10,122 nt of DNA from a virus. Lineage: Duplodnaviria; Heunggongvirae; Uroviricota; Caudoviricetes. Within the stretch, counting starts at the first letter, position 1. Each line of letters opens with the position of its first letter. Below, piece by piece: positions 1 through 10,122 of this stretch. A model generated the notes under the pieces. That model saw only the letters and a list, made by a program, of their open reading frames with translations. It was not told where the DNA came from and ran no database searches. The position numbers and the translations under genes are program-made. The stretch lies in IMG/VR virus record IMGVR_UViG_2711768040_000012. One strand, written 5' to 3'.

Positions 1-234
1 ATGAAATCAAAAGACACCCTAAAGTGGTTCCCTGCGCAGCTTCCTGAAGTAAGAATTATCCTAGGGGATGCTGTAGTGGAAGTAGCAAAACAGGGAAGAC
101 CTATCAATACCAGAACATTGCTTGATTACATTGAAGGAAACATAAAGAAAAAATCATGGCTGGATAACAAAGAATTATTACAAACAGCGATATCAGTTCT
201 TAAAGACAACCAAAATTTAAATGGTAAAATGTAA
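1..234 (+). CDS. ynaE: YnaE/YdfK-family small prophage protein (cold-shock-inducible family), 77 aa
   Basis: Complete ORF, ATG at 1-3 and TAA at 232-234. Translation MKSKDTLKWFPAQLPEVRIILGDAVVEVAKQGRPINTRTLLDYIEGNIKKKSWLDNKELLQTAISVLKDNQNLNGKM is recognised from memory as the 77-aa YnaE (Rac) / YdfK (Qin) protein that sits upstream of pin in E. coli K-12 prophages. The ynaE versus ydfK assignment is uncertain. Confidence 0.8.
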   Translation: MKSKDTLKWFPAQLPEVRIILGDAVVEVAKQGRPINTRTLLDYIEGNIKKKSWLDNKELLQTAISVLKDNQNLNGKM

Positions 235-550
235 TATAATAAACTTACTTTTTTATCATTTTTCCACTTTAACAACATTTTGCTCCACTTTTCCACGACC
301 AAACAACTTGAAATCTGGTTAAAATAACACGCAACACTATTCTTCTTCCTTGAGTCCGCCCGGAACTCGAAAAACAAACCGAGTTAAAGCCATTTTTCAC
401 AAAATCGATTTTGGGTCTCACCAAAATTACGGGGTTGCATACGCATTCGTTTATTTTCGAACGTGTACATACAAATATGCACAAAAATAATCATAATTAT
501 TTTCTGAGATGCATTATGATATGAACACCAATTTCGTATAGAGTCTCACT
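235..550 (+). promoter_or_regulatory. AT-rich intergenic region upstream of pin, presumed to hold the pin promoter/operator
   Basis: 316-bp non-coding, AT-rich spacer between two same-strand genes. Contains direct repeats of TTTCCAC/TCCACTTT (261-296) and an imperfect palindrome TGTACATA-caaa-TATGCACA (464-483) about 70 bp upstream of the pin ATG. No clean sigma70 -35/-10 pair could be assigned by eye. Confidence 0.3.
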
Positions 551-1141
551 ATGTCTCAAATTTTTGCTTACTGTCGGATATCAACGCTGGATCAGACCAC
601 CGAAAATCAACGCCGGGAAATCGAAAGTGCAGGTTTTAAAATCAAACCTCAGCAAATAATCGAAGAACACATTAGCGGCTCAGCAGCAACCAGTGAGCGT
701 CCTGGTTTTAACCGGTTGCTTGCTCGCCTGAAATGTGGTGATCAATTGATTGTGACAAAACTGGATCGCCTTGGTTGTAATGCAATGGATATCAGGAAAA
801 CAGTGGAACAACTGACCGAAACAGGTATCAGAGTGCATTGCTTAGCATTGGGGGGCATTGACCTGACCAGTCCAACAGGAAAAATGATGATGCAAGTAAT
901 TTCAGCAGTCGCTGAATTTGAACGAGACCTTTTACTTGAACGCACTCATTCCGGGATAGTAAGAGCCCGCGGCGCAGGGAAACGTTTTGGTCGACCACCT
1001 GTGTTAAATGAAGAACAGAAACAGGCGGTATTCGAACGAATTAAGTCAGGTGTAAGTATAAGTGCCATTGCCCGGGAATTCAAAACCTCGCGGCAAACCA
1101 TTTTAAGAGCCAAAGCAAAACTTCAGACACCTGACATATAA
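551..1141 (+). CDS. pinR: Serine recombinase, Pin/Gin/Hin/Cin-family DNA invertase, 196 aa
   Basis: Complete ORF, ATG 551 to TAA 1139-1141. N-terminal resolvase/invertase catalytic motif ([12 protein letters not shown], presumptive catalytic Ser11) and C-terminal helix-turn-helix ([21 protein letters not shown]). Recognised as essentially the Rac/Qin prophage invertase PinR/PinQ of E. coli K-12. Confidence 0.95.
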
Positions 1142-1238
1142 AAAATAATCTCGGTGTGAGATGCTTTACGTCTTCCAAGCCCCCTTCCTTGCCGTAAATG
1201 GAAAGATACATCTAATTATAGAATTTATATGTTTTACC

Positions 1239-1814
1239 CTACGGCAGTGCTGGCCATTCAATATCCTGTGCAGTTGACGTATCAACACGGTTCAGCAATA
1301 CCCGATACTTTTTCCATGCTTCCAGCAACGAGATTTCTTCCTCCGTTGCAATTTCCAGATCTGCAGCATCCTGAAGCGGCGCAATATGCTCGCTGGCTAC
1401 CTGCATCAGGCTGTTTTTTGTTTCTTCCGCCTCCCGGATCCGGAACAGTTTTTCTGCTTCCGTATCCTTCACCCAGGCTGTGCCGTTCCACTTCTGATAT
1501 TCCCCTCCCGGCGATAACCAGGTAACATTTTCCGGTAACGGACCGAGTTCAGAAATAAATAACGCGTCGCCGGAAGCCACGTCATAGACGGTTTTTCCCC
1601 GATGATCTTCAACGAGATGCCACGATGCCTCATCACTGTTGAAAACAGCCACGAAGCCAGCAGGAATATCTGGTGGTGCAATATCGGTACTGTTTGCTGG
1701 CAGACCTGTATGAGGCGGAATATATGCGTCACCTTCACCAATAAATTCATTAGTTCCGGCCAGCAGATTATAAATTTTTATGGTCCGTGGTTGTTCACTC
1801 ATTCTGAATGCCAT
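1239..1814 (-). CDS. tfa: Tail fibre assembly protein Tfa, 191 aa
   Basis: Complete minus-strand ORF, ATG at 1812-1814 and TAG at 1239-1241. Translation [24 protein letters not shown]...DIEWPALP is recognised as the TfaR/TfaQ/lambda Tfa family. Its ATG overlaps the stf stop by one base (TAATG), suggesting translational coupling. Confidence 0.92.
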
Positions 1815-4800
1815 TATGCAAGCCTCACAATATAGTTAAATGCGATGTTTTTGACGGTGTTTTCCGCGTTACCAGCAGCGTTAACGGTGATGGTGTGTCC
1901 ATGTGAACCAATCGCAACGGAGTGCGTATGAGCACCAATACCGACAGTATGCGCGTGTGCACCTGCAGATGCTGCTGTGCCGGACAGTGAATGGCTATGA
2001 TTACCATCTGTACTGGTATTCGCTAACCACCCCGTAGACATACCTACTGAGCCTTGTACACCCCAGGTATTTTGACCTGAGCTTGTATAACCATATTGAT
2101 AAGTATCTTTAAAAACACTGGGGTTAAATCGACGGCCATCTCTATGGCTGTGATTACCAGCTGCATTCGTGCTGCCACTTAAACTATGGGTATGCGCACC
2201 AGTGTTATTCGTGGATTTAGTGCCGTAATCAAACGACGATGTGGTTTTCGTCCCCAAATCCGTACTGGATACGCTGGCGCTGTGGGTGTGTGATTTAATG
2301 CCGTCCTGTTCCTGAGACAATACGGCCCGACCACTGGCGGGCTTGCCCTTAATCGTCCAGCCACGCATATCAGGGATCACGCCTGACGGATAAGCGGCTG
2401 CAAGTTTCGGGTATGCAGATTTGTCAAAAGTCTGCCCCTGCATCAGGGCATAACCAGACGGAACGGTATCTGATGGCCACGGGATTGGTGCGCCGACTGG
2501 GTAGCTTTCTGGTGGAAGATTTTTCGAGGTATAAACTTCTGCCCAGTCTTCCTCAAAACCATAGCCATCTCTTGAGGAACGGTAGAACAGACCTCCATTT
2601 CTGTAATGTGCCTTCATCTGCAAGGTCCGGCAACTTCCGACTCCGGTATAGAAGTTAACCAGAATATAGGTGTCGCCAGAGCGGGTGACATTGTAAGCGC
2701 CTGATTCGGCATTCCAGGGAACGCCACCATCCGCATCGGCATATGTATCCGTTGCCCTTCTGGCAAAAGCAGCCACATGCGCGGCGGTTAAAGTAATATC
2801 TTTGGAACCATCAAACTCAACACCAGAAACCCGTCTTGGCGTTTGCAGCTTTGTTGCTGTTAATGCATTACCGTTCAGACTTGCGGACAGTTTGGTTCCA
2901 ATAACCAGTTCGCCGGTTGCGTTATCAATAGCAAACGGTCTTAATGTATTCCAGCCACCATAAACATCACCTTGATTGGTAAGCAGCAGGTAAGTTTTAG
3001 CGCCATCATTACGCCATAATGCCCCATACTCCCCACCTATCATTCGAATCTGATTACCACCACACGCTACAATTTCGTCTGTGGCAAAAAGTTTTTTGCA
3101 CGACAAGTTATCGTTAACGATTAACGAATGAGACTCATAAAAACCACGCCCACTCTTAAAATCAAGGATAACGTCCGCCGCGATACATTCAGTCGCCGGA
3201 TTTGTTGCCCCAAACTTATAGGTCGTATCATTAACAACGAGATCAGCACCAGGTGCGGATATTGACAGGCCATCTTCGATAAACGCAAAAACAGGGAAAG
3301 CAGCGCCATCAACATAGAACACAGAGCGCAAATCATCGCCCTTATTACTCATCATTATTGAGTGGATGGCTCGTTCATTGTTTTGATATTGCCAGAACAT
3401 TCCATAAGCATAACGCCCCCTGTCAGTCCAGCCACCAGGCATAACAAATCCGTTAAACTCGCAGTTATTCATCGGATCGCCTGCGGTTCGCGTTGCCGTG
3501 GTGATAATGACCCTTGATGCCAGTTCGCTTACTGAGCCAGCAGAACGCATAACAACAACAGGGTAATATTTTCCAGATGTTGCACCTGCAGGAGCGTTAA
3601 CCCGCACATAACGCATACCACGCTTATCAGCAAAGTCTGTTTTACTGACCGCGTTAATGTTGTTCAGGAAGCGTCCCTTATCGGGTATATCAGCGCCGTT
3701 CTGGTCTTTCTGCAGACGTTTCTCTGCATTGTCATAGGCTGATTTTACTGCCTTTGGCGTTGCCGCCAGCGTTTCAGACGTCCTCAAGCGCCACGGCGGA
3801 TGCAATATCCTCTGCCCGTTTTGCCGCTGTCTCGGCGCGCGTTGCCGCGGATTCCGCCGTACTTTTGCTCTGTGCTGCCGCCGTCGCACTGCCAGCTGCC
3901 TCTGTCGCCTTCGTGGATGCTGTCGTGGCGCTGACCTTCGCTGCGGACGCTTGTCTGGTCGCCTCATCTTTTGAAGCAGACGCCGATGATGCCGATGACG
4001 CCGCCGAACTGGCGGACGATGCGGCAGCCGTTTTTGAGGATTCTGCGCTGGTTTCCGACGCTTTCGCGTTCGTCTCGGATGTCTTCGCTGCGGAAGCAGA
4101 CCTCGCTGCTGCGCTGGCCTGTTCAGTGGCTTCGCCAGCCTTCGTTGTGGCTGTTGAAGCAGACGATGCGGCACTTTCTGCCGATTTTCCGGCGGCGGTG
4201 GCACTGGCTGAGGCCTGCCCGGCACTTGTTGACGCGGCACTGGCAGACGACGCAGCCGCTGTTTTTGAGCCTGCCGCAGCCGAGGCGCTCTGTCCCGCTG
4301 CCGTTTCAGAAGACCTGGCGTTTGTCTCAGACGTCTTTGCCGCCTTCGCGGAATTGCCTGCCGCCGTTGCCGAGGAAGCGGCACTACTGGCGCTTGATGA
4401 TGCGTTCGTTTCTGATGATTTCGCTGCCTCTTTTGAGGCCGCCGCATCCCGGGCTGAGGTGGCTGCTTCTGACGCCTTCGTGGTCGCGGCGGATGCAGAA
4501 GTGGCTGCTGATTGTTGTGACGCTGCCGCATTCGTTTCTGACGTTTTCGCCGCAGCGGCACTGGTAGCTGCCGCGCTTTTTGAGGACTCTGCAGCAGCAG
4601 CACTTTTCGATGCTTCACTGGCCTTTGTTGATGCCGTTCCTGCGCTGGAAGATGCTGACTGAGCCGACGACGCGGCCTGTCCGGCTGACGTGCTGGCTGC
4701 GCGTGCTGAGCCTGCAGCATCAGTCGCATGGGTTGCCGCCTCACGGGCTGATGTGCCGGCATCGCCGGCTGACTTCTTCGCGGCTGCCGTGTTCTGTGCC

Positions 4801-5159
4801 ACCGCGGACGCGTTACGCGCCACCTCTTCCACCATCAGTTCAAAACGGCGCAGTGCCTCAGGACGGGCATCATCCTCCGTCATGGCACCGAGAAAATCAT
4901 TCAGCGTACCGGGTCGGGAATCTTCATACACGGTGATGGTCCCGGCATGTGACGGCGGGAATCCCTCCACCAACAGAATAACGCTGTACTGCCCGTACTC
5001 AACGTCCATGCTGTAACGCCCGGCTTCATCCGGATTTTCTGAGGCCAGCGTGTTCACCACCACCGTGGTGCTGTTACGTTTTGCTTTCAGCTGGATTGTG
5101 CAGTTCTGTACCGGTTTTCCTGTGCCGTCTTTCAGTACACCTGAAATCTTTACTGCCAT
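1814..5159 (-). pseudogene. stf: Side tail fibre protein Stf, disrupted by a frameshift near 3774-3782 (N-terminal fragment 3774-5159; C-terminal homologous part about 1814-3781 in another frame)
   Basis: N-terminal frame starts at ATG 5157-5159 (MAVKISGVLKDGTGKPVQNCTIQLKA..., lambda Stf-like; the track's 5165 start is an upstream GTG) and stops at TGA 3774-3776 after ...[17 protein letters not shown] second frame carries the rest of the fibre from [23 protein letters not shown] to the C-terminal ...[18 protein letters not shown], stop TAA 1814-1816. The track's 982-aa ORF (1814-4762) is this C-terminal part fused to an Arg/Pro/Gln-rich alternative-frame read of the Ala-rich repeats. Confidence 0.8.
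3777..4830 (-). repeat. Ala/Ser/Thr-rich low-complexity tandem-repeat stalk region inside stf
   Basis: About 350 codons dominated by A, S, T, K, E with recurring units such as AAKTSETNA(R/A/K)SSET and SAASSA. The matching DNA shows degenerate direct repeats of about 27 nt, e.g. gcgttcgtctcggatgtcttcgc near 4067, gcgtttgtctcagacgtctttgc near 4318, gcattcgtttctgacgttttcgc near 4528 (plus strand). The GC-rich repeat keeps several frames open, which produces the artefactual overlapping ORFs. Confidence 0.7.
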
Positions 5160-5167
5160 ATTCACCC

Positions 5168-5223: not shown

Positions 5224-5823
5224 TCAGAATTTATAACCGACACCCACGATGAAACCGTCAGTGCGCCAGTCACCACTGCCGGAGCCTTCATAAGCAATAT
5301 CAATGGCCACGGATTCGGTCGGGTTAAACTGCACGCCAGCCCCCCACGCCAGAGACGTGTTGCTGTGGCGACCGTCATCACTTCCGGTCAGCACATCGTG
5401 CTTTTTCCCCTTGTTGTCAGTTACGCGAAGATAATCCCCGGAGAAAGTCGACACACGGCTGTAAGCTACACCCGCCATCGCATACGCGCTGAACCATTCA
5501 TTCACGCGCACAGACGGCCCCGCCATTACGCTGAACCAGCGGTTACGAACGGAATCTTCATGCCAGCGGGTATCGCTGTAACGGGTCAGCTGGCGATTCT
5601 TGTCTCCTGCATAGCTGAATGACGTCACCAGCCCCAGTGTGTCCGTAAACTCATAACGGTATTTCACGTTAATCCCGTTCAGATCATCACTGCCGGGGAC
5701 GTTCGTCGAGGCATGAAGATACCCCGCGCTCAGCGTGGACTGATGTTCAGACGCCCATGCAGGCGCACCGGATACGGCCAGACAAATGGCTGCGGACAAA
5801 ATTGCTGCACAAACTTTACGCAT
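5224..5823 (-). CDS. lom: Lom outer-membrane protein (Ail/OmpX/PagC/Lom family), 199 aa
   Basis: Complete ORF, ATG 5821-5823 and TGA 5224-5226. N-terminal signal peptide MRKVCAAILSAAICLAVSGAPAWA and a C-terminal ...GFIVGVGYKF beta-barrel terminal motif ending in Phe. Near-identical to lambda Lom as recalled. Upstream GAGAGG Shine-Dalgarno. Confidence 0.95.
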   Translation of the reverse strand: MRKVCAAILSAAICLAVSGAPAWASEHQSTLSAGYLHASTNVPGSDDLNGINVKYRYEFTDTLGLVTSFSYAGDKNRQLTRYSDTRWHEDSVRNRWFSVMAGPSVRVNEWFSAYAMAGVAYSRVSTFSGDYLRVTDNKGKKHDVLTGSDDGRHSNTSLAWGAGVQFNPTESVAIDIAYEGSGSGDWRTDGFIVGVGYKF

Positions 5824-5893: not shown

Positions 5894-8800
5894 TCAACGA
5901 ATACTGATGCCGGAAGCGGCTTTTTTGGTCACAATCACCGTACAGTCGGTGATATTGCCTGCCCCCTGATTGCCTTTCTGGAAAATCTTAAACTCCAGAG
6001 TGACGCTTCCCCTGCCACTCGGCATATCAATAACTGCACTGTAACTACCGGGAATGGCCCCTTTAGTTTCTCTGGATGCGATTAATACGCCGTTTTTGCG
6101 AACTTCAAAACCATAACCCGTGTATCGCGTGCCTCCTGGGTTATTTCCGCTCCCCGGATCGTCATACGCTATACCGTTAAAAATAATGGGCGGAATAATA
6201 ATCTGGCGGTCAAAGTTATGATCATCGCTGATGGTGACTGTAACCGTACCGTTTGGTGTTTCCGTGTTACCCCACGTACCGACTTTTTTCGGGAAGGCTT
6301 TTGATACAGCTTTAACGAAATCTCCTCTGACCTGGGTCGCCTCCAGCATGCCCTTAATCGTACAGTTCTGGTTAATCGTGACATTGTTGAGCGTTCCTGA
6401 GTTCGCATTCACACTGCCACTGATATCCGCATTTTTCGCCGTCAGTCTCCCGTCTGATGTCAGGGAAAATGCCGGAGGATTACCGCCGCTGGTAATGGTG
6501 GGGGCCGTCAGGCGTTTCAGGAACACTTCATTCATGAATATCTGATCGCCCTGACCAACAAACATCGGCTTTGTGTTGCCATTCGCAGGATTAATCATCG
6601 CAATCCTGTCTGCTGCCAGCAGCACCTGACTCTGCATGCCGTCAGGGGTGTTCTCAATACCGGCACCGATACCCGCAATATAAAGGCGTCCGTCCTGCAT
6701 CTGCTGCAGCTTCACTGCCCACATGCTGTTCAGGTTATTATTTGTATCAACCTGAACCTTCTGTATCTGCTGGATCGCTGCACTCTGGTCTTCCAGTTTC
6801 TTATTGACGGTCTGTGTTATTTCATTGCTGACATCCGTTATGGACGTCCTGATTTCAGTCAGGTCAGGCGCAAGCTGACCGTTATCAATCTGCGTCCACA
6901 GCTCCTGAGCCAGATGGGTTTTCCCTATCTCGCCTTTGAAAAAATCCAGATAGCCTGATGCATCATCACTCGGCTGACCGACAGCCTCCACGAATGCCGA
7001 TTTGCCAACGGTGTTCACACTGCGAACGTAAAAATAATAATCATGGCCCGGTTTGATATTGATACTGGCGGCTATCCAGTACAGTGCCGTACCAAGATAA
7101 CGCGCGCTGGTTTCAACCTGCCTGATATCCGCAATCCGTTTTTCCGAGAACCAGAACTCAAACTGTACCGTCGGGTCATAAACCGCAAGATGCGGCGTGG
7201 CGGTTATCTGAAAATAGCCCGGCGTCAGCTCAATCCGCGACGGCGCTGCCGGTGCGGCAATCCGGAACGATACCGACGCCGGATCGCCCTGCTGCCCCCA
7301 CGCATTTACTGCCCGGACTGTCAGCCTGTAGTTCCCCAGAGCCAGTTGTGTGAAGCGGTAAGTGGTTTCCGTCGTCCGGGCCGTGCTGACCAGCCGCTCA
7401 CGGCCGTCATCCGCTGCCACGGTCAGGCGAAGCAGGAAGCTCACGCCCTTCACCACCTTCGGCGTGTCCCAGCGCGCCAGCACCTGGTATTCCCCGCTGT
7501 CTGCGGTGACTTCGGCGGTCAGGTGCTGCACCGCTGGCGGCGTGACACCATTCACCGTGCCGCTCTGGTCGCCGTCAAAGTGCGCCCCGTTATCCACGAT
7601 GGCTTCTTTTTCCGGTACATGCTGCACGGCGGTGATGGCATACGTGCCGTCGTCGTTATCACGGATACTCACGCAGCGGAACAGGCGCTGGCGCAGCGTC
7701 GGCAGCTTCAGCCCCCACACGCTGTATTCAGCAACGCCGTCAGGAACACGGCTCACTTTCACCTTCACGCCGTCGGTGACGGACTGAACCTCCACGCTGA
7801 CCGGATTGCCACTTCCGTCAACCAGGCTTATCAGCGTGGTACCGGAGGATGGCAGAGTGATTTCACGGTCGAGCGTCAGCGTCCGGGTCTGGCTGTTTAC
7901 CGCCAGCACGCGCCCGCCGGTGCTGATACCGGCATAGTCATCATCGCAGATTTCAATGACATCGCCCGGTACATGGCGAAGCCCTTCAGCACCCACGCTG
8001 AAATCCACGGTCTGCGTCTCCAGCAGTTCCGTTTTAATCAGCCACAGCCCGGCGCGGTGTGCCTGCCCCCGGCTGGTACAGCCAAAGGCATCCATCTTCG
8101 TGACATTACGACCGTAACGGGCAATGGCCTGCGTATCTTCAACAAGCTCTGTCGCCGTCTCCCAGCCGTTGTTCGGGTCAATCCAGTTCACCTCAACGGC
8201 ATTATGGCGGTCCTTCAGGGCGCTGAAACTGTAGCGGAACGGCGCGCCATCATCCGGCATCACCACATTACTGCGGTTATAGGTCCACACCTTATCCGAC
8301 GGTCGGTCCTGCACGAACGTCAGCGTCTGCCCGTTCCATACCGGCATACAGCGCATCGCAGAGCAGAAATCACTGAGCACATCCCACGCCTTGCGCTGTG
8401 TGGTCAGGTACGCATTACAGGTGATGCGCGGCTCCGTGCCGCCAAAACCGTCCGGCACCGACTGATCGCAATGCTGGCCGATGACATACAGCGCCCATTT
8501 GTCCACATCCGCCGCACCAAGACGTTTCCCCATGCCGTAGCGCGGATGGGTCAGCATATCCCACAGACACCAGGCCATGTTGTTGCTGTATGCTGGCTTA
8601 AACGTTCCGTCCCAGATACCGCTGTATTGCCGCGTCTGCGGGTTATAGTTCGACGGCACCTGCAGAATACGCCCGCGCAGATGATAATTACGGCTCACCT
8701 GCTGGCTGCCGAACTGCTCCGAGTCCACCTGCACGCCGACCAGTGCCGTGTTCGGGTAGCCCTGTTTCACATCGATGATTTCGGTGTATGACGACCAGAG

Positions 8801-9391
8801 CGTTTTGTTCTGCAGCTGGTCTGTGGTGCTGTCCGGCGTCATCCTGCGCATCCGGATATTAAACGGGCGCGGCGGCAGGTTATCCACCACAACCGAGGCC
8901 AGATACTGTGAGGTGGTTTTGCCCTTAATGGTGATGTCTTTTTCCGTCACCCAGCCACCGTTACGTTGTATCTGAACCAGCAGGCGGACTTCCGATGGAT
9001 TCCTGTCCCCCTTTGAGGTGGTTTCCACCAGTGCCTGCACGCCGAAAGTAAAACGCAGACGGTCAATGTTTGCCGACGTGATGGTCCGGGTGATCGGCGT
9101 GTCGTATTTCACTTCCGTACCCAGCACCGTCTCGGAGCCAGAGGATTCAAATCCCTCCGGCGGTGTCTGCTCCTGCTCACCGGCCCGGAACACCACCGTT
9201 ACACCGGAGATATTGGTATTCCCCTCACTGTCCAGCACTGGCGTACTGTTCAGCAGCACGCTTTTTAATCCATCCACCGGACCTTCAATCGGCCCTTCGC
9301 TGATGGCATCGATCACACTCAGCAACTGCGTGGACTTCAGGTTGTCCTTCGCTTCGCGCGGAGTATGCCCCTTACTGCTGCCTTTACCCAT
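5894..9391 (-). CDS. J: Tail tip / host-specificity protein J (central tail fibre), 1165 aa
   Basis: Complete ORF, ATG 9389-9391 (GAGG Shine-Dalgarno 5 nt upstream) and TGA 5894-5896. First roughly 820 residues ([45 protein letters not shown]...) are near-identical to lambda gpJ as recalled. The C-terminal roughly 340 residues are diverged and about 33 aa longer than lambda's 1132-aa protein. Confidence 0.95.
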
Positions 9392-9450: not shown

Positions 9451-10122
9451 TCAGCGACCAATCACCACAACCTGACCACCGTCCCCTTCGTCTGCCGTGC
9501 TGATCTCCTGAGAAACCACACGTGATCCCACGCGCATTTCACCGTACAGAACGGGCAGAACATTGCCCTGGGCAACCATGTTATCCAGTGAGGAGAAATA
9601 GGTGTTTTGTTTGCCGTTATCCGTTGTCTGTGTACGGGGAGTTCTGGCTTTCGGTGCCAGCATCTGGGCCACACCACCGAGCACCATACTGGCACCGAGA
9701 GAAAACAGGATGCCGGTCATACCACCGGCCCCAATGGCTTCCCCCCACGCTGCAAGGGTGGCTCCGGCAGTAAAGAATGATCCGGCAATGGCGGCTGCTC
9801 CCAGGACAATCTGGAATACACCACCAGACTTGGCCCCGGCGACTCTGGGAACAATATGAATCACAGCGCCATCAGGCAGAGTCTCATGTAACTGCGCCGT
9901 TAACCCGGACGTGCTGACGTCCCGCCCGGCAATCCGTACCTGATACCAGCCGTCGCTCAGTTTCTGACGAAACGCCGGGAGCTGTGTGGCCAGTGCGCGG
10001 ATGGCTTCAGCCCCCGTTTTCACACGAAGGTCGATGCGGCGGCCAAATCGTTGCAAATCCCCGTAAAGGCAGATGCGCGCCATGCCCGGTGACGCCAGAG
10101 GGAGTGTGTGCGTCGCTGCCAT
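9451..10122 (-). CDS. I: Tail tip assembly protein I, 223 aa
   Basis: Minus-strand ORF with ATG at 10120-10122 (window edge) and TGA at 9451-9453. Translation MAATHTLPLASPGMARICLYGDLQRFGRRIDLRVKTGAEAIRALATQLPAFRQKLSDGWYQVRIAGRD...GQVVVIGR matches lambda gpI as recalled, including the Gly/Ala-rich hydrophobic central segment. Confidence 0.95.
   Translation of the reverse strand: MAATHTLPLASPGMARICLYGDLQRFGRRIDLRVKTGAEAIRALATQLPAFRQKLSDGWYQVRIAGRDVSTSGLTAQLHETLPDGAVIHIVPRVAGAKSGGVFQIVLGAAAIAGSFFTAGATLAAWGEAIGAGGMTGILFSLGASMVLGGVAQMLAPKARTPRTQTTDNGKQNTYFSSLDNMVAQGNVLPVLYGEMRVGSRVVSQEISTADEGDGGQVVVIGR

Follow-up and report, generated by a model that had tools for sequence, protein, structure and literature searches.

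Two groups of small serine recombinases are described that come close to the gene studied here: the invertases of the Din family (Gin of Mu, Cin of P1, PinE of e14 and Hin) and the TnpR resolvases of Tn3-family transposons. We examined a 10,122-nt stretch of viral DNA (IMG/VR record IMGVR_UViG_2711768040_000012; the whole stretch is called the window hereafter), which comprises the right arm of an E. coli lambdoid prophage of the Qin/Rac type. Its recombinase gene, pin (551–1141, + strand), had been described in an initial annotation as a Pin-family invertase standing next to tail fibre genes with no recognisable invertible segment. Judged by its sequence, the gene is the already known pinQ: the encoded 196-aa protein is 100% identical to K-12 PinQ and 99% identical to PinR, and PinQ (b1545, prophage Qin) and PinR (b1374, prophage Rac) of K-12 are the same gene as that of the window. 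Like PinQ, the Din invertases combine a similar size and fold with a C-terminal helix-turn-helix (HTH) and a place beside tail fibre genes. Unlike them, PinQ is accompanied by no invertible segment and no crossover sites, lacks a catalytic arginine, and has transposon-derived flanks. We consider it probable that pinQ is the stranded tnpR gene of a broken Tn3-family transposon and that it was never part of a tail-fibre inversion switch; its product would be impaired in catalysis.

The homology to a transposon extends over the gene and both of its flanks. Window positions 471–1180 align as one block of ~710 bp, at 82% identity, to positions 3098–3809 of an element on plasmid pOkiPb01710_1, and this block begins within the intergenic region that holds the resolution site (res), includes tnpR and reaches into the right terminal repeat. 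BLAST also returned plasmid copies with 83% DNA identity, covering just ~495–1180 of the window. The element on pOkiPb01710_1 is a complete 3.8-kb Tn3-family transposon with 53-nt terminal inverted repeats (IRs; GGGGTCCGCTTGGAAAACGGAAAATATCCCACGCTAAG..., 96% complementarity), a 994-aa transposase (DDE_Tnp_Tn3, 3.9e-146, plus DUF4158) and a 160-bp divergent intergenic region between tnpA and a 196-aa tnpR. The closest full-length relatives of PinQ are transposon TnpR proteins, and the nearest of these belongs to this unnamed tnpA-res-tnpR element, which occurs on E. coli plasmids (NZ_AP042667.1, NZ_CP012499.1) and in Shewanella baltica. The plasmid-borne tnpR and pinQ are 83% identical as proteins and 82% as DNA, are of the same length, and have alike recognition helices (S/T-RQTILR). 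Compared with such Tn3-family loci, that of pinQ lacks a transposase, a left IR and a full res, encodes a cysteine at the equivalent of Arg71, and is prophage-borne.

The same linkage is found among the other relatives. Recombinases with 77–84% identity to PinQ in E. coli, Klebsiella, Shewanella and Hafnia are encoded 160 bp from a divergent Tn3 transposase gene; for the proteins at 77–79% identity (P0091, P0072 and P0116, from Klebsiella, Shewanella and Hafnia), this neighbour was the 994-aa transposase in 12 of the 15 loci inspected. The complete 3.8-kb element is present in 57 E. coli genomes, and relatives of PinQ were found on 1868 plasmid records. Several copies per Shewanella genome lie in different flanks, and the element is therefore mobile. 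More distant homologues in Mycoavidus and Rhodobacterales (60–70% identity) showed no phage context, and their surroundings were uninformative. Proteins 99–100% identical to E. coli PinQ also appeared in metagenome-assembled genomes of Draconibacterium, Caldithrix and Alistipes (loci L002, L003 and L005), most likely through E. coli contamination or mis-binning.

At the right end of the homology block, a relic of the terminal IR (CTCGGTGTGAGATGCTTTACGTCTTCCAAGC---CCCC; 1150–1184, + strand) follows the pinQ stop codon, and position 1184 corresponds to the end of the transposon. Tn3-family terminal IRs are ~38 bp long and of the GGGG...TAAG type; 27 of 38 positions are kept in the relic, which differs from the intact IR by 8 substitutions and a 3-bp deletion and then gives way to unrelated prophage DNA. 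The copies on E. coli plasmids and in Shewanella baltica share the intact IR without a single difference, and their flanks diverge just past CCCC. In the window, the stretch from the transposon end to the tfa stop codon (1185–1238) is prophage DNA that is absent from the transposon, and tfa–stf modules without pin are shared with the window only from ~1248–1252 onward. A second prophage lineage, 16% divergent (protein P0009, locus L026), has the same pin–tfa junction, the relic res and the relic IR, which indicates that the insertion would be old. No left IR is present at the window locus, and no tnpA remnant was found by tblastn and blastn of the window and of the 9 kb beyond the ydfK-type gene.

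On the left side, alignment to the tnpA–tnpR intergenic regions of four transposon copies places a decayed distal res, together with the tnpR (pin) promoter and the ribosome-binding site (RBS), at 453–550 (+ strand). In the four copies, subsite A reads TGACCGAAA-N8-TTTCGGACA (right half TTTCGKACA; 26 bp), subsite B reads TGTCCGAAA-N14-TTTCGKAYA (32 bp), and a further TTTCGTAC half-site lies beside the RBS. The corresponding features in the window are the right half of subsite A (TTTCGAACG, 455–463), a relic of subsite B (TGCACAAAA...TTTCTGAGA, 478–509), a -10-like TATGAT (515–520) and the last half-site (TTTCGTATA, 532–540). Among the columns invariant in all four transposon copies, the window keeps 28 of 32 in the promoter and RBS, 14 of 19 in subsite B and 10 of 19 in subsite A, the left half of which is gone. 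Further left, in the spacer at 235–452, 6 of 22 are kept, which is the chance level. By this alignment the prophage holds a truncated, decayed res. Homology to res left of 471, obtained with a permissive alignment, was unconvincing and was set aside; only the half-site at 455–463 is plausibly homologous there. The transposon half-sites of the TGTCCGAAA type presumably resemble the gamma-delta res motif.

The putative crossover subsite A of the transposons (L024:7940–7965, with equivalents in L031, L034 and L041) has 26 bp arranged as 12+2+12, with half-sites ending in AAACC as in Din sites. This geometry is that of gix, cix and pix, and the half-sites of the two groups follow a broadly alike pattern, T-x-T-C-C-x-AAACC. 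Site I of Tn3 and gamma-delta is 28 bp. The 26-bp subsite A hints that the resolvase clade of PinQ may be intermediate between classical resolvases and invertases.

The active site of PinQ carries a substitution at a conserved position. Tyr7, Arg9, Ser11 (codon 581–583), Arg73 (the Arg of LDRLG) and the HTH are all present, and to this extent the enzyme looks intact, as had been supposed from its serine motif and HTH. The conserved catalytic Arg of the DRLGR motif, however, is replaced by Cys76. Its codon, TGT (776–778, + strand), aligns with that of the catalytic Arg71 of Tn3/gamma-delta resolvase and is CGT in the transposon copies, so that the prophage motif reads LDRLGCN as against LDRLGR(N/S). 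Arg occupies the position in 115 of 121 family representatives. The other six have Cys: the query itself, the P0009 lineage and four clusters of at least 98% identity. Cys was found in all 13 readable prophage-type copies and Arg in every transposon or other relative. In Tn3 resolvase, R71 is classed as crucial together with Y6, R8, S10, D36 and R68 (PMC2794168; see also PMC4499144); the R71A and R71K mutants failed to resolve in vivo, gave no recombination that could be detected in vitro, and cleaved at ~0.0007–0.0009 of the rate of the parent enzyme (PMC2794168). By analogy, PinQ would be a poor catalyst or none. Three proteins (P0004, P0005 and P0008) are chimeric, with an N-terminal half of the transposon type, including the catalytic Arg, and a PinQ-type C-terminal part or tail. 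They suggest homologous recombination between a plasmid transposon and a prophage pin, or else assembly chimeras of short contigs.

The prophage gene still shows the signature of selection. Between the two Cys76 prophage lineages the ratio of non-synonymous to synonymous substitution rates (dN/dS) is 0.38 (35 non-synonymous and 26 synonymous changes; p = 7e-4 against neutrality), compared with 0.15 between a prophage and a transposon copy and 0.10 between two transposon copies. Such relaxed purifying selection suggests that PinQ survives as a DNA-binding protein. In Shigella flexneri (L015) and E. coli ECGI0523 (L016), a second pin copy at 10001–10587 is interrupted by frameshifts and stop codons, and some prophage pin copies thus appear from their sequences to be decaying into pseudogenes.

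These observations can be joined into a sequence of events. A Tn3-family transposon would have inserted ~55 bp downstream of tfa, near the prophage end, and would have lost its transposase gene, its left IR and that half of the presumed crossover subsite which faces tnpA. What remains would be the tnpR-proximal part of res with the promoter (~453–550), tnpR itself and the decayed right IR (1150–1184). The prophage lineage has also fixed the CGT-to-TGT change, from the catalytic Arg (R71 in Tn3 resolvase) to Cys. PinQ might now repress its own synthesis at its relic res and promoter, or bind sites of related shape, for instance the res of transposons that come in or the crossover sites of Din systems. 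The window would show no invertible segment, no second tfa and no pair of crossover sites because pinQ never belonged to an inversion switch. The suggestion in the initial annotation that the invertase may be a relic thus stands in part: the gene is probably a relic, but of a Tn3-family transposon (partial res, tnpR and right IR) downstream of tfa, rather than of an inversion system.

Comparison with the Din invertases supports this separation. The window protein is only 35–38% identical to PinE, Gin and Cin, which are 75–82% identical to one another, and the designation Pin-family invertase cannot be upheld at that distance. In Din systems the 5′ part of the invertase gene carries a Fis-dependent recombinational enhancer, annotated in P1 at cin codons 7–30; Fis sites are too degenerate for recognition by sequence. 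The Pfam matches of the protein are to Resolvase (2.5e-36) and HTH_7 (2e-11), and NCBIfam gave no specific family for it at cut-off. The best matches among solved structures were Gin (1.6e-29, 106 bits) and, distantly, gamma-delta resolvase (8.9e-23, 84 bits), scores that place PinQ roughly between the two classical groups. The assignment to the resolvases is made because of the context, the res and the IR, as sequence alone is insufficient for it.

The search for crossover sites gave a consistent result. As the initial annotation had described, pin converges on tfa (1239–1814, − strand) across a 97-bp spacer (1142–1238), and the list of open reading frames (ORFs) contains a single ORF with a Caudo_TAP match and a single 3′ end of stf; neither a second tfa nor an alternative end of stf occurs in it. 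A half-site position weight matrix (PWM) was built from Mu gixL/R, P1 cixL and e14 pixL/R, and both strands of the window were scanned with it. The best full Din-type site in the window scored 10.5 bits, close to the maxima of shuffled sequences (9.1 ± 2.3), whereas true sites score 27.5–29.9 bits; the best half-site reached 11.9 bits, against 11.4 ± 1.4 in shuffles. The scan included the interior of stf, and it agrees with the earlier failure to find a complete crossover site by eye. The half-site-like AAAAACAAACCGAG reported at that time at 376–392 lies in fact at 370–383, and it fell outside the ten best half-site scores. Another candidate, GTCTTCCAAGCC at 1170–1181, which lies shortly behind the pin stop codon, the place of cixL in P1, was unranked in the PWM scan and is part of the transposon IR. 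A search of the whole window for inverted repeats gave chance-level pairs only, with no convincing repeat flanking tfa/stf, and no inverted pair of crossover sites around the tfa/stf 3′ region, the finding that would have spoken for a switch, turned up in the window. The absence of a Din-type switch is hereby confirmed quantitatively.

We also looked for inversion of the neighbouring region in genomes. A synthetic query was made in which 1185–3000 was inverted relative to 1–1184; a genome with tfa/stf flipped beside pin would be expected to match far more than 61% of it at a single locus. Coverage of 80% or more of the inverted query was reached in 0 of 5426 complete E. coli genomes, the best coverage being 61% among the matches listed, while the natural order was covered to at least 80% in 1327 of the 5426. 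BLAST searches by Kirigo et al. (PMC12529663) likewise found inversions in e14 only, and not in Rac or Qin.

Two other readings would keep pinQ within a cis-acting switch. If pinQ were the leftover of a fibre inversion system of the Mu/P1/e14 type from which the invertible segment, with its alternative stf 3′ end and second tfa, had been deleted, the arrangement at the locus would be accounted for: the gene adjoins tail fibre genes, and pin -> <- tfa <- stf is the P1 order (cin -> cixL Sv' U' <- U <- Sv cixR <- Sc) minus Sv'-U'. Against this stand the low identity to the Din invertases, the lack of any crossover site or half-site above chance in the window, stf included, the homology of both flanks to a Tn3-family transposon and to no inversion module, and the linkage of the closest relatives to Tn3 transposases rather than to fibre genes; we regard such an origin as very improbable. 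Alternatively, PinQ might invert its own promoter region or the neighbouring 3′ part of tfa/stf through sites unlike those of Gin, Cin and Pin that a Din-based search would miss. The site preference of the clade does differ from that of Din sites, and a Din PWM is not fully adequate for it. Yet the best matches to a half-site PWM of the clade itself form no pair bracketing tfa/stf, the window has no long inverted repeats, and neither our genome survey nor that of the PMC12529663 authors recovered the inverted arrangement, which leaves this explanation scarcely credible.

Action in trans, which the initial annotation had also raised, requires more attention. Kirigo et al. (NAR 2025; PMC12529663) reported that overproduction of PinQ or PinR raises inversion of the 1797-bp P segment of e14, from 26% with the empty vector to 88% with PinQ by qPCR. 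The inverted P segment yields a chimeric StfE2 that blocks adsorption of T2; bacteria that survived T2 on lawns overproducing PinQ had the segment in its inverted form, the effect needs stfP, stfE and e14, and PinQ is induced by T2 (PMC12529663). An active PinQ that binds the e14 pix sites and itself catalyses inversion of the 1.8-kb segment would explain these results, and PinQ binding at pix is plausible, as the pix half-site TCTCCCAAACC agrees with the half-site consensus of the transposon res, TGWCCGAAACC, in 9 of its 11 letters and scores 6.7 bits, within the top 0.08% of background. This reading is compatible with a transposon origin and clashes only with the proposed loss of catalysis. 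Several data argue against it. Cys76 sits at the position where R71A and R71K abolish recombination by Tn3 resolvase. In Table S4 of PMC12529663, inversion is 1.5% in a pinE deletion that keeps pinQ and pinR, 22% in a pinQ deletion and 30% in the wild type, figures that show a dependence of inversion on PinE; PinQ in a pinE deletion is not among the tests reported in the paper. The pix half-sites, in the register that matches better, lie 2 bp closer together than those of the 26-bp subsite A. Finally, 170 genomes cover at least 80% of the e14-type P segment plus pinE, a count in which inverted copies are under-represented (~380 records match at 95% identity or more), whereas the ydfK–pin–tfa module (window 1–1900) is covered to at least 80% in 2058 of the 5426 complete E. 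coli genomes; a role specific to e14 therefore cannot explain the distribution of pinQ. We consider catalysis by PinQ in trans rather unlikely. An effect of overproduction on the e14 P segment is thus published, which partly bears out the idea of action in trans, but Table S4, Cys76 and the rarity of the e14 segment speak against catalysis by PinQ or a general role of this kind. Table S4 together with Cys76 is explained no less well by a PinQ that modulates catalysis by PinE than by a PinQ that is itself the catalyst.

A number of points weigh against the view that pinQ is a crippled transposon resolvase. The structure match to Gin (106 bits) is stronger than that to gamma-delta resolvase (84 bits), and a classical resolvase placement does not follow from the protein sequence. 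Neither a remnant of the transposase gene nor a target-site duplication survives as proof of the insertion, and a transposon stump leaves the origin of the spacer at 235–452 unexplained. The effect of the Arg-to-Cys change is extrapolated from R71A and R71K of Tn3 resolvase. The rise from 26% to 88% on overproduction and the slight drop on pinQ deletion speak for some activity, direct or indirect, and a dN/dS below 1 means that PinQ still does something.

With pinQ taken as a former tnpR, a present function can be proposed tentatively. PinQ and PinR may be exapted, catalytically disabled resolvases that are kept under relaxed purifying selection as sequence-specific DNA-binding proteins, and the effect on e14 could then arise through binding at pix, or through mixing with PinE subunits, either of which would bias the inversion catalysed by PinE. 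It is conceivable that this is so, although we would not call it likely. In a similar way, PinQ might sit on the res and promoter region of Tn3-family transposons of its own clade that enter the cell, and so repress or hinder them.

Searches of the open-access literature returned no account of a transposon origin for PinQ or of its Arg-to-Cys substitution. The gene itself is known and its explanation ordinary; its revised origin and changed active site are moderately interesting. A resolvase stump accounts for the long-standing absence of an invertible segment, and PMC12529663 builds a new class of phage defence on PinQ as an active invertase, a claim on which the missing catalytic Arg bears directly. 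If the proposed origin is correct, pinQ would cleanly illustrate how a prophage can retain the enzyme of a mobile element whose original job is gone. The name 'pin' has moreover steered the annotation of Tn3-family plasmid resolvases: those at L023, L024 and L029–L043 (from Klebsiella, Hafnia and Serratia, among others) go under the name 'putative DNA-invertase from lambdoid prophage Rac' in public databases, a label that looks to have spread from the K-12 name pinR.

The remainder of the window is made up of prophage genes. At its left end, a 77-aa ORF (1–234, + strand) corresponds to the cold-shock gene type ydfK/ynaE, the ydfK label being carried by E. coli loci with 99.9–100% identity; Pfam and NCBIfam searches gave no match for it. 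This gene is the neighbour of pin at the prophage end and lies outside the transposon relic. The spacer that follows it (235–452), which includes the pseudo half-site at 370–383, shows no transposon homology, the local alignment to the transposon beginning only at 471, and gave nothing in the Din half-site scan. Window 1–1900 is 99.9% identical to loci annotated ydfK–pinQ–tfaQ, and the ydfK–pin–tfa locus is among the commonest prophage modules of E. coli. Rfam gave no match within 235–1238, and a terminator scan of the pin–tfa spacer found none. The neighbourhood is the same around K-12 PinQ and PinR, with ynfT/ynaM, ydfK/ynaE, pin, tfa and stf, and with the prophage end by ydfJ or ttcA.

On the other side of pin, all genes lie on the − strand. 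The 191-aa tfa product (Caudo_TAP, 9.6e-43) corresponds to tfaQ/tfaR in matching genomes; tfa is a neighbour that faces pin and not a partner in any switch. It is followed by the side tail fibre gene stf in two frames (1814–~3790 and 3774–5165), lom (5224–5823), J (5894–9391) and a tail assembly gene (9451–10122) that extends past the window end. This arm is more complete than that of K-12 Qin, in which stfQ is truncated, as it retains J, lom and a full-length stf region. The two frames of stf are separated at 3781/3782 by a 53-bp frameshifting deletion relative to K-12 stfR and to locus L025, which is otherwise 98.6–100% identical to the window, and the deletion takes out the conserved ASTTKKGIVQLSSATNST motif of stf. 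The stf of the window is either a pseudogene, as is that of lambda PaPa, or the product of an assembly error.

Two further observations concern tfa. A match to Rfam IS009 (RF02111, a small-RNA candidate that came out of screens in E. coli) scores 219.9 bits (gathering threshold 117) at 1273–1471 (− strand) and falls wholly inside the 3′ part of the tfa coding sequence. In addition, the tfa 3′ end contains recurrent mosaic breakpoints among E. coli genomes, at ~1248–1252 and ~1350–1361: many prophages have the tfa–stf region in common with the window only from ~1250 onward and carry no pin, and others have ydfK–pin and the last ~110 bp of tfa in common with it, joined to a different tfa body.

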